A stretch of 64,000 bases of DNA from an uncultured Gemmatimonadota bacterium (lineage in GTDB: Bacteria > JAAXHH01), in contig OX638340.1 of NCBI GenBank assembly GCA_951812955.1, positions 2,784,001 through 2,848,000 of the forward strand. The letters are read 5' to 3'. Numbering within the stretch: the first letter of the stretch is position 1; every line of letters starts with the position of its first letter. The translations under genes and the position numbers were made by a program. The notes beneath the pieces were generated by a model. The model had not been told where the DNA came from and ran no database searches. It saw only the letters and a program-made list of their open reading frames with translations. Shown here piece after piece: positions 808-25,139 of this stretch.

Positions 808-2067
808 TTATCCTGGGCGAGCAAGGTGTGGCTCTTCATCGAATGCTCCCGTTGTATCGAATTCCTCCGTCGAATCAAATTCTTCTGTCGTATCGAATAC
901 CCTCGTTGGATACCGGGTTTCCTGCTCCTCCTGGCGTCGAGAGGCTTTGAATCTCCGAAATCGTCTCCATGCCAGGGAAAGACCGGTCCATACCAGGACC
1001 ACGGCGCCGGCTGACGCCACGCCCGCGATGAGCTGACCGAACCATCCGGCCGCTTCGCCCGTGTGTATCCAGCGCAGCCAGGTGCGGATCTGCCGTCCCA
1101 TGTTCAAGCTGGTGAAGGGTATCCATTCGACCACCCCTGCATCGCTCGTGGATACGGTGAGCGTCGATCGAGTCAGCGGAATGCGGTTGTCCATTTCAGA
1201 AACGGTCAGCGTGGTGGTTTCCGCGCCTTCTTTCGGCAGGTTCAGCGTGATGTACGCCCATTCCGGTACCTGCCTGCGCGCCGCGTCCAGAAAAGATTCG
1301 GAGGGAGCGACCGGCAACGGCGTGGTTTCATCCCCGGGCGTTGCCGGTTCAGACGCGGTTTGCGCTGCCCGTTGGGGCGGTTCCGTACCCGTAAGCGTGT
1401 AGACCAGGTCGCCCGCCCAACGATAGGAAATGACGACCCCGCTCAGCGAGATCAGGAAGAGGGCGGGAAGACACCAGAATCCGAAGGAATTGTGCCAGTT
1501 GAAATCCCGGTTTTTCCCCTTGATTTTGAAGTTCGGTACGAAGACTGCCTTGAACGCCGCCCATGTCCACCGGCGGGGCCACCAGATGTACAGACCCGTG
1601 ATGGTCAACAGGCAGAACGCCAGGTTGCAGGCACCCGTAACCGCGCGGGCGACCGCCCGGTTTTCGCCTTCCGCGCCGAACCAGCGGTGCCAGTACATGA
1701 TCTCCCGGAGGAAATCGCGGACGGCAATGTTTCCTTCGCCCCGAACATCCCCGGTATAGGGATCGACGAAGACGGTTTTCGCGCGGCCGTACCGCACGAC
1801 GTACGCCTCGGCCGGATCCGGACGTATGGTAACGGAGGCTGGCTCCGCTTCGGGATCGGCGTTCCGGACCGACGTGAGCACTGCGTCCATATCCATCCGC
1901 GCGGCGCCGGGATGGGGAGGATGGACCGTGGCGTAATTCCGGTTGGCGTAATCGACGATCTGACTCTGGAATGTGAGCAGCACGCCGGTTACCGACATGA
2001 ACAGGATGACGACGCCGGTGACGACGCCCGACGAGAGGTGGATCCAGAAGATGGTTTTTCGAATCAT
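808..2067 (-). CDS. PepSY-associated TM-helix protein (PiuB-like putative iron-uptake reductase/accessory membrane protein)
   Basis: 419 aa. N-terminal PepSY_TM pattern (MIRKTIFWIHLSSGVVTGVVILFMSVTGVLL), multiple TM segments, and C-terminal acidic FDTTEEFDSTEEFDTTGAFDEE repeats. Sits between feoA and feoB. Confidence 0.65.
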   Translation of the reverse strand: MIRKTIFWIHLSSGVVTGVVILFMSVTGVLLTFQSQIVDYANRNYATVHPPHPGAARMDMDAVLTSVRNADPEAEPASVTIRPDPAEAYVVRYGRAKTVFVDPYTGDVRGEGNIAVRDFLREIMYWHRWFGAEGENRAVARAVTGACNLAFCLLTITGLYIWWPRRWTWAAFKAVFVPNFKIKGKNRDFNWHNSFGFWCLPALFLISLSGVVISYRWAGDLVYTLTGTEPPQRAAQTASEPATPGDETTPLPVAPSESFLDAARRQVPEWAYITLNLPKEGAETTTLTVSEMDNRIPLTRSTLTVSTSDAGVVEWIPFTSLNMGRQIRTWLRWIHTGEAAGWFGQLIAGVASAGAVVLVWTGLSLAWRRFRRFKASRRQEEQETRYPTRVFDTTEEFDSTEEFDTTGAFDEEPHLARPG

Positions 2068-2237: not shown

Positions 2238-2501
2238 TCAGATTCTTTCCACCAAAACCGAACGAGCCTCCGCGCATCGAATAGACAGGTGATAGTTCCG
2301 TACGCGTATCTCGATAGGGTCACCCATCGGTGCACGCTTGATCAATTCTACGGTCGTGCCCGGAAGCAGCCCCAGTTCCATCAGGTGCACTTCTTCCCCC
2401 GCCGTGCCCTTGATCTGCCTGATCGTTCCTTTTTCGCCAGGCTTCAGTTCATCCAGGCGAATCGTCTGCGCCGTTGTACTGGTAAAGAGTTCGGAGTGCA
2501 T
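2238..2501 (-). CDS. feoA: Ferrous iron transport protein A (FeoA domain)
   Basis: 87 aa with an SH3-like FeoA pattern (LDELKPGEKGTIRQI...LMELGLLPGTTVELIKRAPMGDPIEIRVRNYHLSIR). Confidence 0.8.
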   Translation of the reverse strand: MHSELFTSTTAQTIRLDELKPGEKGTIRQIKGTAGEEVHLMELGLLPGTTVELIKRAPMGDPIEIRVRNYHLSIRCAEARSVLVERI

Positions 2502-2671
2502 GGGTTATCTCGTGTCAGAGGGTCCTATGCCGGTACTAGCTACGGAACTGAAAGGTGTTATCCGAATAGGCAGGATCTCCTGTCGGTGGAATCGATCCGT
2601 TATAGTATGAATTTGACCTGACACGACGGTCTCCTTAAAACCCGCCGCCGGTCTACCGAATACCTCGTTCC

Positions 2672-3202
2672 TCACGCAGACTCCGATCGGATTACCAGGC
2701 ATTCACCCACTTCCTCGCATACCGCGCAGGAATCGAAATCGCAGATTGACAGCACGTTGGCGTCCCAGTAGGACTTGAGGAACGCCTTGCCGTGGGGGTC
2801 GTCCGAAAGGAGGAACTGCAGGAAGAGCAGTAACCGTTCCCCCGTCTTCGTACTGATCAGGTGCTCGATCTTGCACGCGTCGATTTCCGCCTGATCCGCG
2901 TCGATATGCAGGACGCCCTTGAGAAAGGCGATGAGGATCTGCCGGTGCGACCAGACCGACTGCGCCAGCCGGTTTCCCTCTTCCGACAGCAGGAGAAACC
3001 GGTTCCGGTCTTCCTCGAGATATCCCTTCTCCCGGAGCGACTTGATCATGATCGACGCGCTGCCGGGCGTGATGTGCATTTCCCGGGCGACATCCGACAC
3101 GCGGGCGTATCCCTGGTCCTCGATCAACTGCTGGACCGTCATCAGGTAGTGCGCGCCGCTGTGCGTGATCTCGTTGTGCTCGAATTCTCTCCAGACATCC
3201 AT
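2672..3202 (-). CDS. DtxR/MntR-family metal-dependent transcriptional repressor
   Basis: ORF 2672..3247. The likely start is the internal Met (MDVWREF..., minus-strand ATG at 3202..3200). There is an N-terminal HTH (ARVSDVAREMHITPGSASIMIKSLREKGYLEE) and a C-terminal metal-binding/dimerisation region typical of DtxR, directly upstream of feoA. Confidence 0.7.
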   Translation of the reverse strand: MDVWREFEHNEITHSGAHYLMTVQQLIEDQGYARVSDVAREMHITPGSASIMIKSLREKGYLEEDRNRFLLLSEEGNRLAQSVWSHRQILIAFLKGVLHIDADQAEIDACKIEHLISTKTGERLLLFLQFLLSDDPHGKAFLKSYWDANVLSICDFDSCAVCEEVGECLVIRSESA

Positions 3203-3327
3203 AATCCTGTTCGATTCGTTATGGCAACCATCGTGTTGCCGTCGCATAGAAATGTTTGGCTACTCAAATATGACTTTGCATTATATAACCTTCCGTTGGG
3301 GTGTCAAGAAAAAAGAAGGCGAGCAGT

Positions 3328-3335
3328 GTTTTTTT
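3328..3335. repeat. Left copy of 8-bp target-site duplication GTTTTTTT flanking the IS
   Basis: GTTTTTTT immediately precedes the left terminal inverted repeat. An identical octamer immediately follows the right IR at 5875..5882. Confidence 0.7.
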
Positions 3336-3357
3336 CGCAATGACAAGTTTTGTACTT
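3336..3357. repeat. Left terminal inverted repeat of IS (22 bp)
   Basis: Exact reverse complement of 5853..5874. Confidence 0.8.
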
Positions 3358-3431
3358 GACGGGCGGACCGGGCCATGGTATATTGAGGGTAGATAAGGAC
3401 AACAAACCATTTACCCTGTTGGAGTTATACC

Positions 3432-4307
3432 ATGAACTTGCACGAAGTGTTTACCCGATTCCCCGATCAGAAAGCCTGTATCGACCACCTGGAAGCGATC
3501 CGTTTTGCAAACGGCGCATATTGCCCGTTGTGCGGGAGCATGGAGAACGTCCGCCGGTCCAACCTGAAAAGCCGTGTCGGACGCTGGAACTGCCATGACT
3601 GCAAATCCTCGTTTAACGTCCTATCCGGTACGCCGTTATCCGGTACGCATATCCCGTTGCCCCGATGGTTCGCGGTCATGGCCCTGATGGTCAATGCCAA
3701 GAAGTCGCTGTCGAGCCACCAGTTGGCGCGGGATCTCGGATTGACCCAGCCTACGGCCCTGTACATGCAGGAACGCCTACGGGCGGTTATGGCATCCGAT
3801 CAAGCCGGTATGCTGGCCGGCATCATCGAAGCGGACGAAACCTACGTGGGCGGACGCCCGCGCAAGCAGAACAAGCGCGACGATTCCCCGACCGGCGGAC
3901 AGGGTAAATCGGACAAGACCCCGGTAATCGGCGCAGTCGAACGAGATGGCAAGGTCGTGGCGAAGATCGCCGATGACATGACCGGCAAGGGCGTGCTGAA
4001 CTTCATCCAGACCGCCGTAAGTCCGGCGGCTCAGATACTGGTTACCGATGAGAACAAGGCATATCGGGCGGTACGCGGCATGATGGCGCACAGCGTGATC
4101 AATCACCGTTACGAGTACGTCAACGGGCCGGTACACACGAACACGATTGAAGGGTTTTGGAGCCTGTTAAAACGGGCGTGGTACGGCAGTCATCACAAGT
4201 ACACGGTCGGACGTATGCCGTTGTTTATCGCGGAAGCGGCTTGGAAGTACAACCACCGGAAAGACGGATGCGCGTGGGACAGTTTCACGCGTGCATTGTT
4301 CGCGTAG
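3432..4307 (+). CDS. IS1595-family (ISXO2-like) DDE transposase
   Basis: 291 aa. N-terminal zinc ribbon (CPLCGS...WNCHDCKSSF), an HTH, then the IS1595 hallmark IEADETYVGG, plus DENKAYRAV and HTNTIEGFWSLLKR motifs. Confidence 0.85.
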   Translation: MNLHEVFTRFPDQKACIDHLEAIRFANGAYCPLCGSMENVRRSNLKSRVGRWNCHDCKSSFNVLSGTPLSGTHIPLPRWFAVMALMVNAKKSLSSHQLARDLGLTQPTALYMQERLRAVMASDQAGMLAGIIEADETYVGGRPRKQNKRDDSPTGGQGKSDKTPVIGAVERDGKVVAKIADDMTGKGVLNFIQTAVSPAAQILVTDENKAYRAVRGMMAHSVINHRYEYVNGPVHTNTIEGFWSLLKRAWYGSHHKYTVGRMPLFIAEAAWKYNHRKDGCAWDSFTRALFA

Positions 4308-4325
4308 ACAGGAACTCGTTTTCGC

Positions 4326-5576
4326 TTAGACGGGCGATAAGATACTCCATAGGCCGGTCGCCCTTGATCTTGTTGCAATGACCACATAGCAGTTGCAGGT
4401 TGCCGATATGACCCCCCCCCCCTTCGACTGTGGCACGACATGATCGACCTCGAAATGCCGGTAATCGAACGAGTATTTACACCCGTTGCATTGCCCCTCT
4501 TGCTCTCCGAACAGGATATGCTTCGTCTCCCTGTTCTTGTACATCACGTCCAGCACGCCCTCTTGCTTCGGTATATCCTTCCGGTGGATGATATCCCCGA
4601 ACAGCCCGTGATGATCCCGTAGACGATGCTCCACGAGTTCCACGGCCTTCTCCGACAGGTCGATCCCCGCCCATTGCCTCAAGTGCGTTTCAGCCGAAAC
4701 ACACGCGGTAGCGCATCCACAGAACGGATCCAAGACCACGTCGCCCTCGTTGCTGGATGCAAGGATGATGCGTTCCAACAACGCAAGGGGCTTCTGGGTT
4801 TTGAACCCCGTATATTCCTTACCTCTGAGGAAGGGTATATGCGTAATCCAATCTTCAGGAAACTTGCCATTTGGGTTTAGTTCGCAAATCCCTGAAGATG
4901 GTCTCCCAGAACCCAAAGACGATTTAGCGTAGCCCGACCGATTTCGGGATGATTCAGCGTATGGAAGACGTATCGGATCGACGTTGAACGTCCACTGGTC
5001 GGTCTTAGCGTAGAAAAGTATAGTATCGTGCGCCCTCGACAATTGCCGTTGCCTGTTACCGGCCATTCGAGAATAACACCATACAATCTCGTTTCGGAAG
5101 CCAGACCGCCCGAAAACTACATCCATGAGCGTTTTAAGGTAGTGGCTGGCCGTCGGGTCGCAATGCAGATATATCGACCCCGTAGACTTCAATACGCGGC
5201 GCATCTCGATCAAACGCACGGCCATCATGCACAGATACGATTGTGTGTGTTTCCCATGCGCCAAGCCCGCCGTTTCCACTACTCGATACAATGCCGGTTC
5301 CGTGTCTGCGATCAGTCCCATCCAGGCCACATCCAGGTCGGAGAGGGTCCATGTATCCTTGAACGCGGCCCCGGCCGCCTTGCTGCCGATGGGCGCCGCA
5401 TAGTTCCGGTTCGAGTTGAACGGCGGATCAAGGTATATCAGGTCCACGGATTCGGAGTTCATGCCGCGTAGAATGTGCAGGTTGTCGCCCGTCCATATGG
5501 TACGGTTGACCCAGTTAGGAGCAGCCATAGACGCCCTTTCGACAACGGCCCCGAAGTTCCCCCCGGAGCCGTTCAC
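4326..5576 (-). CDS. DNA methyltransferase (beta-class N6-adenine/N4-cytosine, motif IV DPPF before motif I) fused to a C-terminal HNH nuclease domain; HNH frameshifted at a poly-G tract
   Basis: 416 aa. Contains WTGDNLHILRGM...SVDLIYLDPPFNS (motif IV) and TQKPLALLERIILASSNEGDVVLDPFCGCATA (motif I region). The C-terminus CNGCKYSFDYRHFEVDHVVPQSKGGG is the start of an HNH motif. The rest of the motif (HIGNLQLLCGHCNKIKGDRP) is in another frame downstream of the G11 tract. With 9 or 12 Gs the ORF would extend to about 4285. Confidence 0.75.
   Translation of the reverse strand: MNGSGGNFGAVVERASMAAPNWVNRTIWTGDNLHILRGMNSESVDLIYLDPPFNSNRNYAAPIGSKAAGAAFKDTWTLSDLDVAWMGLIADTEPALYRVVETAGLAHGKHTQSYLCMMAVRLIEMRRVLKSTGSIYLHCDPTASHYLKTLMDVVFGRSGFRNEIVWCYSRMAGNRQRQLSRAHDTILFYAKTDQWTFNVDPIRLPYAESSRNRSGYAKSSLGSGRPSSGICELNPNGKFPEDWITHIPFLRGKEYTGFKTQKPLALLERIILASSNEGDVVLDPFCGCATACVSAETHLRQWAGIDLSEKAVELVEHRLRDHHGLFGDIIHRKDIPKQEGVLDVMYKNRETKHILFGEQEGQCNGCKYSFDYRHFEVDHVVPQSKGGGVISATCNCYVVIATRSRATGLWSILSPV
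4412..4422. repeat. Homopolymeric tract C11 (G11 on the coding strand) inside the HNH domain coding region
   Basis: Direct count of 11 consecutive C at 4412..4422. The frameshift between the two halves of the HNH motif coincides with it. Confidence 0.9.
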
Positions 5577-5670
5577 CGCGTGATTGTGGATTGTTTGTGA
5601 ATAAATCGGGGTTGCGCTGCCCTGTCAAGCGTAACGTACACGGTAGTCGGGTTCGTGCCTAATCTCATAC

Positions 5671-5718
5671 ATAGTTAAAGGACCGGAGATCATGCACGAT
5701 CCCCGGTCCTTTAACTAT
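5671..5718. promoter_or_regulatory. Perfect 16-bp-arm inverted repeat (ATAGTTAAAGGACCGG / CCGGTCCTTTAACTAT) with 16-nt spacer, upstream of the methyltransferase-HNH gene
   Basis: Arms at 5671-5686 and 5703-5718 are exact reverse complements. Spacer is AGATCATGCACGATCC. Located about 95-140 bp upstream of the passenger gene start (5576) and inside the IS. Candidate operator/controller site; function not demonstrable from sequence. Confidence 0.45.
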
Positions 5719-5852
5719 AGTCCTCTGCGATCTAACCGTCAATCGGCTCTATCAGTCCGGACGGCGATACTTTCCTGCATCAACCACGGCCCATACCATG
5801 ACTACGAGCGGAACGGCGTACCGTCAACATTACGGGCGGAGGGTTGCGCGGT

Positions 5853-5874
5853 AAGTACAAAACTTGTCATTGCG
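5853..5874. repeat. Right terminal inverted repeat of IS (22 bp)
   Basis: Exact reverse complement of 3336..3357. Confidence 0.8.
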
Positions 5875-5882
5875 GTTTTTTT
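5875..5882. repeat. Right copy of 8-bp target-site duplication GTTTTTTT
   Basis: Identical to 3328..3335 and immediately abuts the right IR. Confidence 0.7.
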
Positions 5883-5966
5883 TCGCGGGGCGGGTGCGAG
5901 GTGGGTACGTACGCGCACAAGCGTGCGCGCGTTCCGTAGTTGTGCTAAAAAGGAGTTGAATGTATT

Positions 5967-8321
5967 TTGTATCATAGGAGTTCTATGCCCCGTAAACTAC
6001 ACCGGGACCTCGGCATGACGAATACGATACCTTTTGCGGAACTTTCGGACCGGCTCAAGGACGACGATTTGCCGGAGATCCTGGTTCGGGATCATCTCGA
6101 CAGGATGGAGCCGGCCTATTTCGAGCGTTACGAGCCCGGGGTGATCCGTAGCCACATCGCGATGATCAGCCGGCTGGGACCTGAGAACGCCGCGGAGATC
6201 GAGGTAGAACCCCTGGGCGATTCGACGTGGCGGCTAACCGTCGTCGCTTTCGACAACCTGTCGGTGATGTCCATCCTGTCGGGACTCCTGGCGACCAGCG
6301 GATTGAGCATTCGCCGCGGGGACGTATTCACCTACGTGGACGCGGAACCGGCAAGCGATGCTCGCAAGCGGTCCCGTCGCCCTCAACGGCGGCGGCGCGT
6401 CGGTTCGGGCGCTCCGGCCGCTCCGCAGGGCATCACCTCGTCGTCGTTGCGTTCCCAGCGAAAGATCGTAGACGTATTCCGCGTGCACGCGCCATCGGAG
6501 TCGCCGTCGGACTGGCCCGCCGTTACGCGGGAAATCAAGGACGCCATGGGCAACCTGCGGTCGAACAGCGCCGGGGCGTTGCAGAGAAGGCTCAACGAGC
6601 GCGTCGTGGATTACCTCCGTCACGAGCGGGACGCGGAGCACTCCTCCATGTTCCCGGTGCATGTGGGGATCGACAATGATACCGTGTCCGGGGCGACCCG
6701 GCTCGACATCACGGGGCAGGACACGCCGGCGTTTCTGTACGCCCTTTCTACCGCCCTGGCCCTGCGCAATATTAACATTCGACGAATCGATATCGCGGCC
6801 GCCGGGATACAAGTGCAGGATACGCTCGAGGTGACCGACCGGCGGGGATCGAAAATCACCGATCCGCGGAAACTTCAGGAACTGCGATTCGTTATCACGC
6901 TCATCAAGCAGTTCACCCACCTGCTGACCCGGGCGCCGAATCCCGCCCAGGCCCTGGAACACTTCAATCAATTGATCGACCAGGTCCTGGCCAACGTACA
7001 GTCCGGCCGGGCGATGGAGGAGATGTTCGACCAGTTGGAGAAGCAGGAAGTAATCAGCGCGATGGCAAAGATTTTCGGCACGAGCGATTTCCTGTGGAAG
7101 GACTTCCTCAGGATGCAATACAAGAACCTGTTCCCCGTGCTGCAGGACATCAGGGTGGTGGGTATCGTAAGGTCGAGGGAGCAGATGGAAAGCGAACTGG
7201 CCGCGCGGTTGTCCAGGGTCGGAAGTTACGCCCGCCGCAAGGAACTGTTGAACCGGTACAAGGATAAGGAGATGCTGCGGATCAGCATGCGCCAGATCCT
7301 GGAGAATAACGAGGACATCCAGGCCTTTTCCCATGAACTCACCACGCTGGCCGAGGTGGTCCTGGAATCGGCCTTCGAGATCTGCGACCGGGAGCAGCGC
7401 CTTCAGTACGGTGGCCCGCTTTTGCCGTCCGGCGAGCCCTGCGTCTTCAGTATCTGCGCGCTGGGAAAATGCGGCGGCCGGGAACTGGGCTGGGCTTCAG
7501 ATATAGAACTGATGTTCGTTTACGCGGGACAGGGCACTACGCAAGGCCCCCAGGCCGTGTTGAATTCGGAGTATTACGAGCGTCTCGCGCGCATGATCTG
7601 CGGCACGATCGAATCACGGCGAGAGGGCCTGTTCGAGATCGACCTCAGGTTGCGGCCCTATGGCGACAAGGGTGCGCTGGCGTCGTCCCTGGAGAAGTTC
7701 AACGCGTATTTCAACGAAAAGGGAGGCGCTTTGCCCTACGAGCGCCACGCCCTGATCAAGCTGCGCGCCATCGGAGGCGATCCGGTCCTGGGCGCCGCCG
7801 TGGAAACAGCCCGCGATACATTCGTGTACAACGACGCCCCGGTCGACGGCAGGTCGTGGACCCACCTTCGCGAGCGTCAGAACGACGAACTGGTCGAAAC
7901 CGGCGCCATCAACGTCAAATACAGTTACGGTGGATTGATCGACATCGAGTATTACGTACAGGATCTGCAGATCCTCTACGGTGCTACGAACCCCTCTGTG
8001 CGCGGTCCGACGACCCTGGAGGCCATGGACGCCCTCAGCCGGGCCGGATACCTTGCAGACGAAGCGCGCAGCATGCTGGAACGGGCGTACGGGTTCCTTG
8101 TCAGGCTGATCAACGCCCTACGCATGGTACGCGGAAACGCAAAAGACCTGGTCCTTCCGGAAAAGTCGTCCCAGGAATTCCTGTTTCTCGCCCGTCGCCT
8201 CGGATACGAGGAGGGGAGCGGACCGGGACCGGACGAACAACTGCGGCAGGACATTGAACGGAACATGGAATGGGCGGCCATGGCGATGAGAACACGGTTC
8301 GTCCATAAGCTGTTCGACTGA
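5967..8321 (+). CDS. GlnD/GlnE-family nucleotidyltransferase with two N-terminal ACT-like domains (PII uridylyltransferase / GS adenylyltransferase-like)
   Basis: 784 aa. Nucleotidyltransferase motif FSICALGKCGGRELGWASDIELMFVY (GlnE/GlnD type GSxxxxExxxxSDIDL) followed by a GlnE-like helical C-terminal region. Two ACT-like regulatory segments in the N-terminal 300 aa. Confidence 0.55.
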   Translation: MYHRSSMPRKLHRDLGMTNTIPFAELSDRLKDDDLPEILVRDHLDRMEPAYFERYEPGVIRSHIAMISRLGPENAAEIEVEPLGDSTWRLTVVAFDNLSVMSILSGLLATSGLSIRRGDVFTYVDAEPASDARKRSRRPQRRRRVGSGAPAAPQGITSSSLRSQRKIVDVFRVHAPSESPSDWPAVTREIKDAMGNLRSNSAGALQRRLNERVVDYLRHERDAEHSSMFPVHVGIDNDTVSGATRLDITGQDTPAFLYALSTALALRNINIRRIDIAAAGIQVQDTLEVTDRRGSKITDPRKLQELRFVITLIKQFTHLLTRAPNPAQALEHFNQLIDQVLANVQSGRAMEEMFDQLEKQEVISAMAKIFGTSDFLWKDFLRMQYKNLFPVLQDIRVVGIVRSREQMESELAARLSRVGSYARRKELLNRYKDKEMLRISMRQILENNEDIQAFSHELTTLAEVVLESAFEICDREQRLQYGGPLLPSGEPCVFSICALGKCGGRELGWASDIELMFVYAGQGTTQGPQAVLNSEYYERLARMICGTIESRREGLFEIDLRLRPYGDKGALASSLEKFNAYFNEKGGALPYERHALIKLRAIGGDPVLGAAVETARDTFVYNDAPVDGRSWTHLRERQNDELVETGAINVKYSYGGLIDIEYYVQDLQILYGATNPSVRGPTTLEAMDALSRAGYLADEARSMLERAYGFLVRLINALRMVRGNAKDLVLPEKSSQEFLFLARRLGYEEGSGPGPDEQLRQDIERNMEWAAMAMRTRFVHKLFD

Positions 8322-8406
8322 TATGCTCGACGGACGACTTTCAACAGACGCTTACGACTGAGGCTTTCGACGGACGGCTCTGATTTTCACTACCTGGAAT
8401 GGCACA

Positions 8407-11400
8407 ATGAATCTGCGGCAAAACAAAATGAAGGTGGCATTGGTCCTGTCGGCCTCGTTGATCATGGCCGCGAGTCTTGCCGTCCTCATCCTGCTGAGTA
8501 CCGGCTGGGGCATGAACCTGGTCCGCCAGGCCGTGTTGCGGAATGTCCAGGAACGGCTCAACGGGCAGATTACGATCGAACGGATCGAGCTTGGTTTGAA
8601 GACGCACCTGGCGGTGCGGGGCGTATCTCTAGCCCTGGCGGAAAACCAGGGCGGCACGGAAGTCATGGGAGCGGATGAAATCCGGATTGGCTTCAACGCC
8701 TGGGACGCCCTGGTCGATGATGCGCCTCTCTACAGCGTCGATATCGACGGATTCCGCATGGCCTACTTCGAAGATGCCGCGGGGAGCGGGAAGAATACTC
8801 TGGACCTGCTGCTGGAGAGTCCGGCGCGCGGCGCGGAAGCGGCCGGGTCGTCTGAGGGAGAACAGTCCGGCCTGCCGATCGATCTGCGCGACCTGCGGAT
8901 CCGGAACGGACAGTTCCGCTATTTCGACCCCGCGGATTCCACGGCGGTGAGCGCCGGGGAAGTCGGTTTCCGCGGTGCCCTGCTCCAGCCGTTCAAGGTG
9001 GATGGCGAAATAGCCGCGGGGCATGTGGCTTTCAATATAGGAGGCTATGAAGACGCCGTCACGAATATGGAAGCGGCCGTTTACTTCGAAGAGGATGCCC
9101 TGACCATTCACGATCTGACGATGGAATTCGCCTATGGCCCCCCGATAGCGTTCCACGCGACCGGCGAGATCTCGACAGCGCGCGGGAATCCCGCCACACT
9201 GGATTTCGCCGCGAACGGACAGGTAGGCGCCATTCTGCGCGTCATAGGTTTTGAGAACGACATGCCCGGGATTTTCAGCATGACCGGGTCGCTGCGAAAC
9301 AGCCTTTCCGACCCCGACGTGAAGACCAGATTCATCTCGCCGGTGGTGCGAACGGAGTACGGCCCGTTCAATCTGGCCGCGGTGGACATGGCATATGGGC
9401 AGCATGTACTCACGGTAAGCCGGTTCCGGGGTAAGCATGAGGCCGGATGGATATCGGGAAGGGGCCTGCTCGATTTTAGCGGGGAATCAACCGGATACCG
9501 CCTGCAGTTGGAGTCTCCCGGAATCGCACTCCACGCATTGCCGCCGGTCCTCGCCGACAGCGGGAGCGAATTGGAGGGAGACGTGGGTCTGGCCTTCGAA
9601 ATGGAAGGAAGAGGGTTCGACGGCCCGCCTCGCCGGGCGGATCTGAACGCTTCTTCCTCCCTGGTGAGCATAAACGGCCTGCCGTTGCGGGAAGTCACGG
9701 CAATGGCCGAGTACCGCCGCGGACTGCTCTGGGCCGACCTTAGGGAAGCGTCTTTCCGGGCCGACGCCGAAGGCCGGCTCGGTACGGATGGAGAACTCCA
9801 GCTGACCGGTTCGGTCGACGTGAATGACATTGGAAACCTGCCCCCTCCGCTGGACATCGCCGGGCTTCGAGGTACGGCCAGACTGGATACCTACCTGCTG
9901 GGCACGCTGCGGCGGCCGACCGTCCGACTGGCCGGTTGGGTCAGCGAAATGGCCTATGGCGATGTCCCGTTCGGTGAGACGAAGATCGAGGGATTCCTCG
10001 ACGAAGTACGCAACCTGACGATCAATGCCGTGCTGGACAGGCTGGAGATCTATGCCAGGACGAGCCTGGCCGGGGACCCGGCCGTCACCGGTTATTTCAA
10101 CCTGCATGATCTCAGACTCGGCGATTACCTCTGGGACGATCCCGGCTGGGGGCTGGATGCCATCCTTCGCATGCAGGGCGATATTTCCGGTACCGTTCAG
10201 CAGCCTGTCGTTACCGGAAAGGGTACTGTACGGAGCCTGGTGATCCGAAACGAAGACCTGGGCGGCACCGATCTGGACATGACGATTACCAGGGACCGCC
10301 TGGAATTCTCCATGACGCGAAACCCAGGACCTACTGTTTCGGCGGAAGGGTCCATCGAGCTGACCGGGCAATACCCCTACGATTTGCGGCTCGAACTTCT
10401 TCAGACTTCGCTGTCTCCGCTCCTCTCCATACTCTCCAAAAAACCGATTGAGGGCGGCACCGGCACGTTCAGCGGGAACATACATGCCGTGGGACTGGCC
10501 GGATATCCGGACCGGTCCACCGTAACGGTCTCCCTCGATTCGCTGGGTATCCTGATGGACGGCCGCGAACTGCATTTCGCCGCTCCCTCCACCGTGAAAC
10601 TCGAGAACCAGGTCGTTACCGTGGACGAATTCAGACTGACGGGTGATTTCGGCGAGGTAACGGTCAACGGTACGGCGAGTCTGGCCGCCGAAGGCCGGGT
10701 CGACCTCGAAACCGTTCTGGAGGGCGTACGGCTGGAGTTTTTCTCGCCTTTCCTTGTGTCCGACGGTACGTTCAGCGGCTCCACGGATGGGGTGATCTCC
10801 CTGAGTGGGACCCCGGCCGTCCCCAGGATCAACGGCCTGTTTACTATTTCGGACGTGAGTTACACATTGAACGAAAAAACGAACCTCCTGGGTACGGTGA
10901 CCGGATCGGTGCTCTACTCAGACCGGTCGATCAAGGTCCCCGTCCTGTCCCTGCATACCCTGCTGGGATTGTCGGAGATCAATCTGACCTATCCCATCGA
11001 TCTCGGGTGGGCGCCGGGCGGTCAGCCGGAATCACCTCCGCCCGGTGACAGATACGCGGCCGCCCTGGTCATGGATAACCTGGCCGTAGCGCCCCTGAGG
11101 GAGTTCTTCGAGGTGGTGCCGGCCGATCTGGACGGATACATCAAGGGCAGGATCGACATGAACGGCTCGGTCCGGGACCGGAGCGATCTGGCGGGGAACG
11201 TGGCACTGGATTCACTGAAGCTGTTCGGCCTGCAAAACGAGTTCGTCAATACCCATCCGGTCAGTCTGCAATTCGACGGGACCCATATCCATATGGATTC
11301 GCTGTCCGCCGTGATACGCAATAAAAACCAGCCCGATGACGAGCGGGGCCGCCTTACGTTGAACGGCCGCCTGGCGTACGGCATCGGCGGGACCGAAACG

Positions 11401-22649: not shown

Positions 22650-25130
22650 TTAATCTCTCATCTCCACGATGGTTACCCCGGTCCCCCCATCGCGCTCTTC
22701 GGCGAAATGGGACGATTTGACCAGGGGATGGTGTTGCAGAAACTCCCGGATCGCGCTGCTCAGGGCCCCGGTACCCTTTCCGTGCAGGATTCGGATTTCG
22801 TTGAGGTCATCGAGGGCGGTCCGGTCGATGCAGCGGTCCACGGCGTCGATGGCCTCCCTGGCGCGATAACCCCTCACGTCCAGTTCCGACAGGGGATCGC
22901 GGGGACGGTCCACCTGTACTTTGACGCGATTCGCGGTAGTCCCGGTTGAGGCCGCCGGATCGGGTTTGTGGAGACTGACTTCGGACCTCCGCGCCGTGAT
23001 CTCCATCCTGCCGGTCTGGATGCGCAGGCGGTCTCCCTGGTCCTGGAGTACCCTGCCCGCCTGCCGCAATGACTCCAGCCATACCTCGTCGCCCGCCGAG
23101 ATCACCTCCCCACCTGTGCGTTCGGGAACGGTATCCCTGGAATCCCCTCCGGCGCGTTTTGGAACCCGGTCCCCGGTATCCGCGTCCGCCGCGGCCGTAT
23201 CGGTATCAATGGCATCGAGCATGCTCTGAAGCAGAACGCGCTGGTCCCTGACCGCCTTGTGTGATTCCTCGACAGCCCCGGACGCGGCCTGTTCCCTGCG
23301 GACCTCGGCCACTGCCCGGTCGATGGCGGCCTGGGCGTCTTTCAGCATCCGGTCCATCTTCTCGCGGCTGGAATCGATCACGTCGCGTTCTTTCTGCTTG
23401 TATGAAGCGATCCGGTCTTCGTAGGACCGTTTCAAGGCATCGAGTTCAACGCGAAGCCGGTCCGCCTGCTCCTGCGCGGCGACGAGCTGTTCGTGCTTCC
23501 GGTCCACGTCCGTGATCAATTCGTCCAGCCGCCGTTCGGGGGTCCCCATGTACCGGGCGGACCGCACGAGGACTTCTTCGGGCATGCCGAGCCGGCGTCC
23601 GATCTCGATGGCGTAGCTGGCCCCCGGGATGCCCTGCCGGAACTGGTAGGTCGGCGCGAGGGTTTCGACGTGGAAGACCATCGATCCGTTTTCCACCCGA
23701 CCGGTCCGGTTGGCGAAGGCCTTGAGCGCGTCAAGGTGGGTCGTCGCCGCCGTGACGGTCCCCCGCAGGGTAAGCGATTCCAGGATGGACATGCCCATGG
23801 CCGCCCCCGCTGAAGGGTCCGTGCCGGCCCCCAGCTCATCGAGGAGCACCAGGGTGTGTTCGTCGGCGTCTTCCAGGATGGTGCGTATATGCCCCATGTG
23901 GGCCGAAAAGGTACTCAGATTCGCCTCGATCGACTGCTCATCCCCGATGTCCGCGAAGATGGAATCGAACACGGCGATATCCGTGTCGTCGTCAGCGGGT
24001 ATGTGCAAACCGGCCTGCGCCATCATGGTCAGGATTCCGATGGACTTCAGGGCGACCGTCTTGCCGCCCATGTTGGGACCGGTAATCACGAGCGTTCGCA
24101 TGGCTTCGCCGATTTCCAGGTTCAGCGGAACGACCGCCTCGCACTGGTCCGCCTGTTGAAGGATGGGATGCCGTGCGTTGCGCAGGATAACGCGGCCGTC
24201 GGAATTCAGCCTCGGCGGTGCTGCCCGCAGGTCAATCGAAAGCACGGCGGCCGCGTGATAGAAGTCGAGCTGGCCCAGGAGGCCGTAGGAAACGGCTATG
24301 GAATCCGCCTGACGGTGTATCTGGTCGGTCAGGGTTAACAGAACGCGTTCGATTTCGCGGCCTTCCTCCACGATCAGTTCGCGCAGCCGGTTGTTGAATT
24401 CGACGACACCCATGGGTTCGATGAATACCGTGGCGCCGCTCGCGGACTGGTCATGGACCACGCCCTGGACCTGGCCGCGGTGATCCATGCGTACCGGGAC
24501 CACGTACCGCCCGTCCCGCATGGTGATGACCGGGTCCTGCAGCGCCCGGGCTCCTGTTTCGGACTGAACGAACCGCTGAAGCCAGTTTCGCGCGCGTTCC
24601 CGCATGGTCTGTTGATCCGCGCGGATCCGGCGCAGCGCGGGACTGGCGTGATCGCGTACGTTGCCGTCGGCGTCGATCGCTTGCCCGATCGACGTTTCGA
24701 TCTCCTGGAAATCTCCCAGCCCGGATGTGAGGGACCGGACATGGGGCTCGGTGGAACGACTCCTCAACCGCAGGCCGAATGCCCGCATGAGGCGGCTTAC
24801 ACGGAGGGTGTCCGCCACGTCCAGCAGGACCTTCGGATCCAACATGGCACCGGCCGCGCCGGCCTGTTCCAGGGCCTGGCCAATGTCTTTGATGCCTCGC
24901 AGGGGAACGGTTTCCCGCTTGTCGAGGAATCCCCGCATCTCGGTGACGGTCTGGAGGTTCTTCCGGATTACGCCGATCTCGTTTGCCGGATCCAGGGACA
25001 TCGCCCGGCGATGACCCTGAACGGAGACCGTCCTTTCCGATACCATCGTCCTGACGGCGTCGAATTCCAGGACCTGCAGCGTGTGGGGAGGTATTCCGGG
25101 TTTCATGTTCGGTCGTTGGTGATTCGCCAC
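22650..25130 (-). CDS. mutS2: Endonuclease MutS2 (MutS domain V ATPase plus C-terminal Smr domain)
   Basis: 826 aa. Walker A GPNMGGKTV, ...DELGAGTDP..., C-terminal Smr (LDVRGYRAREAIDAVDRCIDRT...ILHGKGTGALSSAIREFL). An alternative start is MKPGIPPHTLQVLEF at about 25106. Confidence 0.85.
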   Translation of the reverse strand: MANHQRPNMKPGIPPHTLQVLEFDAVRTMVSERTVSVQGHRRAMSLDPANEIGVIRKNLQTVTEMRGFLDKRETVPLRGIKDIGQALEQAGAAGAMLDPKVLLDVADTLRVSRLMRAFGLRLRSRSTEPHVRSLTSGLGDFQEIETSIGQAIDADGNVRDHASPALRRIRADQQTMRERARNWLQRFVQSETGARALQDPVITMRDGRYVVPVRMDHRGQVQGVVHDQSASGATVFIEPMGVVEFNNRLRELIVEEGREIERVLLTLTDQIHRQADSIAVSYGLLGQLDFYHAAAVLSIDLRAAPPRLNSDGRVILRNARHPILQQADQCEAVVPLNLEIGEAMRTLVITGPNMGGKTVALKSIGILTMMAQAGLHIPADDDTDIAVFDSIFADIGDEQSIEANLSTFSAHMGHIRTILEDADEHTLVLLDELGAGTDPSAGAAMGMSILESLTLRGTVTAATTHLDALKAFANRTGRVENGSMVFHVETLAPTYQFRQGIPGASYAIEIGRRLGMPEEVLVRSARYMGTPERRLDELITDVDRKHEQLVAAQEQADRLRVELDALKRSYEDRIASYKQKERDVIDSSREKMDRMLKDAQAAIDRAVAEVRREQAASGAVEESHKAVRDQRVLLQSMLDAIDTDTAAADADTGDRVPKRAGGDSRDTVPERTGGEVISAGDEVWLESLRQAGRVLQDQGDRLRIQTGRMEITARRSEVSLHKPDPAASTGTTANRVKVQVDRPRDPLSELDVRGYRAREAIDAVDRCIDRTALDDLNEIRILHGKGTGALSSAIREFLQHHPLVKSSHFAEERDGGTGVTIVEMRD

Positions 25131-25139
25131 CGGCCAAAG

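Follow-up and report, generated by a model that had tools for sequence, protein, structure and literature searches.

The window analysed here, 64,000 nucleotides of contig OX638340.1 from an uncultured Gemmatimonadota bacterium (assembly GCA_951812955.1), carries an insertion sequence (IS) of the IS1595 family whose passenger gene encodes a beta-class N6/N4 DNA methyltransferase (MTase) fused to a C-terminal HNH nuclease. Within the HNH motif the gene is split by a run of eleven G residues on its coding strand, the minus strand (C11 on the plus strand, positions 4412-4422). This run is very probably a genuinely hypermutable site at which the nuclease of the MTase-HNH family has been inactivated repeatedly. 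A contingency-type hypermutable tract, which turns the nuclease off and leaves the methylase intact, is the best single explanation of the data; for this broader reading confidence and doubt are about evenly matched.

The split nuclease motif

As sequenced, the open reading frame (ORF) occupies 4326-5576 on the minus strand and encodes 416 residues from GTG 5576, a protein identical to database protein P0001. It comprises an intact methyltransferase, the first half of an HNH motif and then a tail of 31 residues that is out of frame, the protein ending in ...DHVVPQSKGGGVISATCNCYVV... (given at greater length, ...FEVDHVVPQSKGGGVISATCNCYVV...). The first HNH half (4423-4490, minus strand; CNGC...FEVDHVVPQSK) contains the first CxxC pair and the catalytic D-H. 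The second half and the C-terminal helix, HIGNLQLLCGHCNKIKGDRPMEYLIARLSENEFLSTRTMHA followed by a stop codon, lie at 4285-4411 of the same strand, in the frame given by 9 or 12 G. Across the tract the minus strand reads ...GTC GAT CAT GTC GTG CCA CAG TCG AAG GGG GGG GGG GTC ATA TCG GCA ACC..., the G11 providing the codons of the Gly-Gly-Gly turn of the motif and forming the site of the frameshift. A first-pass annotation of this DNA had described an 11-nucleotide G/C run splitting the HNH motif of an MTase-HNH gene, and the minus strand does have G11 between the two halves. The same annotation had proposed that 9 or 12 residues in the run would give a continuous fusion of about 430 residues ending near 4285. 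With the run set to either length, the frame goes on as HIGNLQLLCGHCNKIKGDRP... to a TGA stop codon at 4285-4287, and the protein has 429 or 430 residues from GTG 5576, or 413 or 414 from ATG 5528. The latter codon is probably the true start of the gene, to judge from the homologues, which begin M-A/G-x-P-N-W.

The tract is the sole G/C homopolymer longer than 7 in the 64-kb window. Runs of 4, 5, 6 and 7 number 312, 71, 19 and 3, respectively, and the next longest is the 11-mer of the tract itself. If bases are treated as independent and identically distributed, 0.17 G/C runs of at least 11 are expected in 64 kb, while extrapolation of the decay of the observed run counts gives about 0.01 (our own estimate). 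The G11 tract has the character expected at a phase-variable locus, that of a slippage-prone repeat inside an ORF whose length sets the reading frame.

Both domains are recognised in the protein that 12 G would encode, which was the profile check proposed for the corrected frame. The match to Pfam N6_N4_Mtase (PF01555) has an E-value of 2.8e-42 and covers residues 28-299 and 219 of the 221 model positions, and the match to Pfam HNH (9.4e-12) covers the whole model (1-47 of 47). The methyltransferase domain (4632-5447, minus strand) lies upstream of the tract and outside the reach of the frameshift, which leaves it whole, as had been claimed from the sequence. Its layout consists of a DPPF motif, a variable central segment and a DPFCGCAT motif. 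The catalytic and S-adenosylmethionine-binding motifs are present, DPPF and DPFCGCAT being invariant in 82 relatives. In the same relatives C348, C351, D363 and H364 of the nuclease are also invariant. The frame-corrected nuclease site has the pattern CxxC...DH...N...CxxC-N and matches the HNH model end to end; as sequenced it is split, and in the G12 form it lacks the conserved Asp. The HNH part also matches Pfam HNH_5 and has weak matches to the HNH models of IscB/Cas9. In the AlphaFold model of P0003, an in-frame relative (mean predicted local distance difference test score, pLDDT, of 81.8), the Gly codons are predicted to correspond to the loop between strand beta1, which ends in D-H, and strand beta2 (LQLLC) of a beta-beta-alpha-metal fold.

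Relatives of the methyltransferase domain in the PDB include MboIIA, M.BceJIV, RsrI and CcrM, with which it aligns in both sequence and fold. Unlike these structures, the window enzyme fuses an MTase and an HNH domain, and no solved structure with both domains fused was found in the PDB. Searches with PADLOC and NCBIfam return generic methyltransferase matches only, the NCBIfam scores being far under every family cut-off. The full-length MTase-HNH fusion is absent from 72,556 PLSDB plasmids, and no characterised member of the family was found in the searched literature or in the PDB.

The central segment of the methyltransferase (4790-5075, minus strand; residues ~151-245), which is presumed to be the target-recognition region, is a mosaic. 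The window protein is 89% identical to P0002 in its N-terminal part and 97% in its C-terminal part, but only 34% in its centre; the centre is nearest to those of P0004, P0005 and P0008 (61%), whose flanks are more distant. This mosaic pattern of identity suggests that specificity modules are exchanged between IS copies.

Tract alleles in relatives and selection on the tail

Relatives with DNA for the tract region comprise about 20 in-frame loci and the IS-borne lineages with at least 8 G at the site. In the in-frame loci the distance from the D-H codons to the N-L-Q codons is exactly 45 nucleotides (nt), encoding D-H-x-x-P-x-x-K/R-G-G-x-D-H-x-x-N, and the longest G run there is no more than 5. 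At least 8 G are present in six IS-borne lineages, of which five are out of the HNH frame (OFF) and one is in frame (ON). The window allele is AA-G11-TCAT (44 nt, OFF). Loci L001, L002 and L003 share AA-G9-ATCAT (43 nt, OFF), with the same call in a SPAdes-style, a MEGAHIT-style and a third assembly. L004 and L036 both have AA-G8-CGATCAC (44 nt, OFF), and L020 has AA-G9-CGATCAT (45 nt, ON). For P0363, known from the protein only, the peptide KGGGIISRIGNC corresponds to the frame of AA-G10-AT (OFF). The short-read samples concerned are SAMN22237331 for L004 and L036, SAMEA3642063 for L002 and SRR22586458 for L020. The tract lengths of other IS copies, which the first-pass annotation had suggested checking, therefore include G8, G8, G9 and a protein-derived G10 in the OFF state and a G9 in the ON state.

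The OFF state is strongly associated with the tract (five OFF and one ON with the tract; 0 OFF and 20 ON without it; Fisher p = 9e-5). With this distribution of states, the tract is a recurrent and specific breakpoint. Both states occur among related alleles, with the length polymorphism that characterises a phase-variable locus: within one protein cluster at 90% identity, P0007 and P0362 are ON, while P0364 and P0363 are OFF and represent two different OFF alleles. The HNH domain is missing in only 3 of the 120 best full-length matches, and all three are tract alleles. The proportion of OFF lineages, five of six, is compatible with a free random walk of tract length (expected 2/3, p = 0.35).

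Further tract alleles were sought more widely. Tract-anchored pattern scans, one of them frame-agnostic, found none in two JGI metagenome scans and one IMG/VR scan, and a protein search with the C-terminal 155 residues gave short fragments and no new tract alleles. A scan of the GTDB species-representative genomes gave only relatives at 50-66% identity. The short proteins from the C-terminal search (P0242-P0361) number more than 100, are 144-271 residues long and contain only the end of the MTase and the HNH part. Many of them are on contigs of megabase size, and some represent 20-57 member sequences. They point either to frequent disruption of the N-terminal half in this family or to the existence of independent short MTase-tail/HNH proteins.

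The first-pass annotation had allowed for a homopolymer sequencing error. For the family this is unlikely, given that frameshifts in the same run are found in SPAdes- and MEGAHIT-style short-read assemblies at 8-9 G, where miscounts are rare. Because four OFF alleles with only 8-9 G are apparently from short-read assemblies, sequencing artefact alone does not account for the phenomenon. What is left of the error hypothesis is a miscount confined to the window copy, the true sequence being in frame (G12, or G11 followed by A). The source contig of the window is 3.81 Mb long, sister assemblies have names in long-read style (ptg...l, ctg..._75x_c), and one such contig, at 5x, has broken genes. 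Eleven-base G runs are hard for long-read chemistries, one added base restores the full HNH match, and the window holds no other long homopolymer that could serve as a control. However, 94% of the rest of the 64-kb window is coding, no other gene there looks clearly broken, and the canonical codons need a missing A, not a G, which is atypical for a homopolymer error. A miscount in the window copy is improbable on this evidence, but it retains some weight.

Selection on the tail was assessed from the ratio of non-synonymous to synonymous substitution (dN/dS) between lineages over the 31-40 codons after the tract. In the HNH frame this ratio is 0.06-0.13 in every pair, OFF-OFF pairs included. 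Within this region the window differs from L001 by 4 synonymous and 2 non-synonymous changes, and from L004 by 11.5 synonymous and 4.5 non-synonymous changes. In the other two frames, which include those that the OFF alleles translate, the ratio is 0.84-2.35 and is greater than 1 in most comparisons. The expressed part upstream of the tract has a dN/dS of 0.04-0.25. In every OFF allele for which DNA was seen, the HNH frame after the tract is free of stop codons. On these substitution patterns, purifying selection still acts on the out-of-frame HNH tail, as the switch model predicts. The coding sequence downstream of the tract stays stop-free and has a low dN/dS in spite of the OFF state, as would be expected at a phase-variable locus. 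A low dN/dS of the tail in OFF alleles implies that each OFF state is very young or that OFF states are transient.

The same data bear on one-way decay, an alternative that is possible, though rather unlikely. In such a scenario the G run arose by chance from GGG glycine codons and is the weakest point of a nuclease that becomes dispensable or toxic after the IS is established. Independent recent losses of the nuclease then leave the methyltransferase an orphan, the losses being neither reversed nor part of an adaptive switch. Decay of this kind would fit the OFF state of five of the six tract-bearing lineages, and the protein database yielded no ON counterpart of the window, L001 or L004 alleles. 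The conserved Asp codon has been lost in the window allele, GGG is common enough for G8-G9 to be expected in ~16% of K-G-G-G sites (again our own estimate), and the many N-terminally truncated fragments of the family suggest that decay is frequent. The OFF tails argue in the other direction. They are stop-free, with a dN/dS about as low as that of the expressed upstream part, so one-way decay needs all the losses to be very recent. In addition, the tract lengths vary both ways around the in-frame values, and each element otherwise looks intact. The transposase gene is full-length in L001, L004 and L036, and perfect 8-bp duplications flank the L001 and L004 elements; in these two, only the tract is hit. 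In the window element, too, G11 is the only lesion, the MTase domain, the transposase, the inverted repeats and the 8-bp duplication all being intact.

Selection on the tail even in OFF alleles would also be expected if the HNH frame were reached by programmed recoding, in which -1 ribosomal frameshifting or transcriptional slippage yields an MTase-only protein together with a minor full-length MTase-HNH product. In form, G GGG GGG is an X XXY YYZ heptamer, from which the window allele reaches the HNH frame by a -1 shift. However, the RNA downstream of the run is predicted to fold no more stably than shuffled controls (z = 0.6 and -0.1), and the shift that is needed differs among alleles, being -1 in the window, L004 and L036 and +1 in L001. 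An in-frame allele exists as well. At the tract, then, the slippery heptamer is not accompanied by the downstream structure and conserved register of a programmed frameshift. RNA polymerase slippage, for its part, is best documented on A/T runs, not on G/C runs. Recoding is accordingly a very improbable explanation.

The IS1595 element and its passenger

The whole element spans 3336-5874 (2,539 bp) and consists of a transposase gene and the MTase-HNH passenger. The transposase (3432-4307, plus strand; 291 residues, intact) has a Zn ribbon and a DDE domain, with Pfam matches to PF12762 (1.7e-35) and PF12760 (2.9e-9) and a score of 170.9 bits against NCBIfam transpos_IS1595, for which the cut-off is 75. 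Its gene is convergent with the MTase-HNH gene, and the 3' ends of the transposase gene and of the restored MTase-HNH gene overlap by 23 nt. The left terminal inverted repeat (3336-3364) and the right one (5846-5874) are both 29 nt long, the right repeat being 90% complementary to the left. Outside them lie the two copies of a perfect 8-bp target-site duplication, GTTTTTTT, at 3328-3335 and 5875-5882. The element thus has the DDE/Zn-ribbon transposase, the terminal inverted repeats and the 8-bp duplication of the IS1595 family, together with evidence of mobility. That the gene is an IS passenger had been proposed earlier, and transposase, inverted repeats and duplication do enclose it.

The empty site is preserved in 10 related contigs, found through the neighbouring FeoA protein, with flanks that are 92-98% identical to those in the window. 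In all 10 the DtxR-like and GlnE-like genes are adjacent, with GAGCAGTG-T8-CGCGGGG between them and no element. Removal of the IS and one GTTTTTTT copy from the window gives exactly the empty site of the relatives, which indicates that the insertion was precise, recent and lineage-specific. The Lon protease of the host is 92-93% identical to proteins from Gemmatimonadetes metagenome-assembled genomes, in keeping with a Gemmatimonadota-like bacterium. The window contains one copy of the IS, and the cluster of P0001 and that of the transposase have one member each. One of the empty-site relatives is from the metagenome assembly MKWU00000000 of the sponge Aplysina aerophoba, a habitat whose symbionts are enriched in restriction-modification (R-M) genes and mobile elements (PMC5649159).

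The pairing of transposase and passenger extends beyond the window. The closest MTase-HNH homologues, P0002, P0003, P0006, P0010 and P0364, all adjoin a convergent IS1595 transposase that is 65-67% identical to that of the window, and the short contig of P0007 ends in an IS1595 transposase fragment. In L001, L004, L018 and L019 the gene pair lies within related inverted repeats of 25-28 nt (CGGAAT...CTTGAC). L001 and L004 have perfect 8-bp duplications of their own (TAGATGAA and AACAGGAA, respectively), and two of the four loci are 2.3-kb contigs that consist of the IS and nothing else. Since the DNA of the related elements is only 69-80% identical to that of the window element, the pairing must be old. 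Next to the distant MTase-HNH genes (50-55% identical), a distant IS1595 transposase is sometimes adjacent (L007, L008, L021), but often there is none within 3.5 kb.

Several of these loci have distinctive features. The L036 element (L036:2315-6196) extends from a left end of the L020 type (2315) to a right end that matches it (6196), and an extra gene for a 488-residue N6_N4 methyltransferase (2359-3825) separates its MTase-HNH gene from the left end. A matching 8-bp duplication was not seen in L036, and the arrangement suggests that the element may be composite or recombinant. L022 (3001-7239) has two tandem MTase-HNH paralogues, then a small ORF and a third methyltransferase gene (N6_N4), truncated at the end of the locus, with no transposase within 3 kb; the MTase-HNH fusion evidently exists outside the IS too, as chromosomal arrays. 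In L021 two MTase-HNH genes (446-1923 and 4001-8485 on one 14-kb contig) are near fragmented IS1595 transposase ORFs of 71, 136 and 148 residues, and these copies are apparently remnants of a decaying, distantly related element.

Two promoter-like sequences are found in the window element. A sigma-70-like site at 3356-3384 (plus strand; TTGACG-17-TATATT with an upstream TG) begins in the left inverted repeat and points towards the transposase gene; the inverted repeats of the related elements end in its CTTGAC motif as well. A second promoter-like site, TTGACG-17-TATAGT at 5742-5714, lies upstream of the MTase-HNH gene (5671-5742, minus strand) and runs directly into a near-perfect palindrome of 48 nt at 5671-5718. 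The palindrome has a predicted folding energy (dG) of -43.5 kcal/mol (z -4.6) and two GATC sites, and could be an operator or a hairpin in the 5' untranslated region. Promoter and palindrome lie within ~220 nt, inside 5577-5845, that are unique to the window IS; the 2.3-kb relatives are without them. An Rfam scan of the element gave no RNA family, and no copy of the palindrome was found elsewhere in the fetched loci.

The IS target is a T run, which is G-T8 in most relatives (window 3328-3335/5875-5883; L026-L035 near 11100, reverse strand). The length of this run and the bases preceding it differ among the relatives, with fewer T in L034 and L035, and so the intergenic T run is likewise unstable or miscalled. 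The PepSY_TM gene by feoA/feoB (window 808-2067, minus strand; 10436-11850 in L026-L035) encodes 401-468 residues among the relatives and is absent in L028. L027 and L035 have an extra ORF of 131 residues between this gene and feoB. Elsewhere in the window, a MutS2/Smr-type protein (MutS_V + Smr) is encoded at 22650-25139 (minus strand). Canonical MutS/MutL mismatch repair would affect the stability of homopolymers, which become less stable when it is lost.

A candidate nuclease switch on a mobile element

In the proposed mechanism, slipped-strand mispairing during replication would alter the length of the G run. A length that is out of register would stop translation soon after the first HNH half, with its first CxxC and D-H, and the truncation would remove the Asn, the second CxxC and the helix while the whole methyltransferase stays. 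An OFF cell would then have an intact methyltransferase and a dead nuclease, presumably a harmless state if the two domains have the predicted activities. A later change in length could restore the nuclease on a genome that is already methylated. For an R-M enzyme, loss of cleavage with methylation kept is non-lethal, and from general R-M biology regaining cleavage on a methylated genome should be safe as well. The window element has recently transposed into the chromosome of a sponge-associated member of the Gemmatimonadota, between a dtxR-like and a glnE-like gene, and as sequenced its nuclease is OFF. Any benefit of switching to the cell is likewise conjectural.

The slipped-strand switch proposed in the first-pass annotation stands in part. 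The hot spot is real and the tail is selected, but the window allele is not a pure product of slippage. The family consensus at the tract is AAG GGN GGN xxx GAY CAY, with an Asp-His pair that is at least 90% conserved in 82 relatives. Compared with AA-G11-AT-CAT, the window sequence AA-G11-T-CAT lacks the A of the Asp codon, not a G. A slip of +1 (G12) restores the length but gives KGGGGHIGN, with Gly in place of the Asp, and a slip of -2 (G9) makes an otherwise invariant loop one residue short. The window allele has thus undergone either a missense change that lengthened the run and then a slip, or a single-base deletion beside the run, and its in-frame form may be impaired.

This departure from a pure slip is one of several points that weigh against a reversible switch. 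In the closest ON/OFF pair, L020 and L036, the synonymous divergence (dS) is ~0.45, and no ON/OFF pair differs at the tract alone. An in-frame version of the window allele is absent among 5.8 billion clustered proteins. The predominance of OFF alleles, five of six, fits repeated irreversible loss too. GGG makes up 30-50% of the Gly codons in MTase-HNH genes, a usage high enough to leave little evidence for selective maintenance of the tract. Lastly, the window is probably from a long-read assembly, where the count of an 11-mer is error-prone. Strong codon-level selection on the tract was also considered as an explanation for it, and is weakened by the same high usage of GGG.

A more speculative reading, to which we attach only a small probability, is that the IS1595/MTase-HNH element is an addiction transposon, that is, a self-mobilising single-gene R-M element with the poly-G tract as its safety catch. 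Hypermutation would keep many copies nuclease-OFF, so that an arriving copy could establish itself and methylate the chromosome; slippage back into frame would then arm the nuclease, stabilising the element or defending the host. By analogy, the tract would take the role that controller (C) proteins have in classical Type II systems, and specificity would be diversified as copies exchange their central target-recognition segments.

R-M genes with homopolymer switches, IS1595 elements with passengers and R-M units between inverted repeats are all known already. Phase variation of R-M genes by slippage has been reviewed (PMC12707154), and in Helicobacter pylori JHP1272 a second tract decides whether the C-terminal domain is translated (PMC3936762). 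The window gene resembles the H. pylori Type IIG gene JHP1272/HP1353-HP1354 and the Type III mod genes in having a poly-G/C tract of at least 8 within an R-M ORF, the length of which shifts the frame. In contrast to the H. pylori systems, the host is an uncultured sponge-associated Gemmatimonadota lineage and not a host-adapted pathogen, and the enzyme is a beta-class MTase with a C-terminal HNH domain rather than an MmeI-like Type IIG or a Type III Mod protein. The window tract also cuts the catalytic motif of the nuclease, so that only cleavage would be switched, and the gene is on an IS; here the switching itself is inferred.

IS1595 elements with passenger genes have been termed 'transporter IS' (Siguier et al. 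2009, as cited in PMC3129680). The window element shares with these, as they are described in that citation, the DDE_Tnp_IS1595 domain with an N-terminal Zn ribbon, short inverted repeats, an 8-bp duplication and one extra gene with no function in transposition. It differs from the elements so cited in that its passenger is an MTase-HNH gene, constant across elements whose DNA shares only 69-80% identity. The literature searched, which did not include Siguier et al. 2009 itself, yielded no account of an MTase-HNH fusion or of such a gene as the passenger of an IS1595 element. R-M units between inverted repeats, with an 8-bp duplication and an empty site in a related genome, were described by Furuta, Abe & Kobayashi 2010 (PMC2853133). 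The window element is similar in that inverted repeats and an 8-bp duplication flank its R-M gene and relatives have the empty site. In the parts of that study consulted, the set was screened against linked mobility genes and the R and M genes were separate, whereas the window element has its own transposase and a single fused enzyme. The combination of a fused beta-class MTase-HNH enzyme, its constancy as a passenger of an IS1595 clade and a tract that would switch the nuclease only appears to be new.

Most documented cases of R-M genes switched by a homopolymer are from a small number of host-adapted pathogens; the present candidate belongs to an uncultured lineage of sponge symbionts and is carried by a transposable element. 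The tract is so placed that only the dangerous half of the fused enzyme would be toggled. In annotation, a 'DNA methyltransferase' of this family with a truncated C-terminus should be checked for the tract before it is called an orphan methylase or an assembly error. If the switch is real, it would provide one way for a single-gene R-M enzyme to move safely between genomes on an IS, and it would add a mechanism to the finding that sponge symbionts are enriched in R-M systems and mobile elements (PMC5649159).

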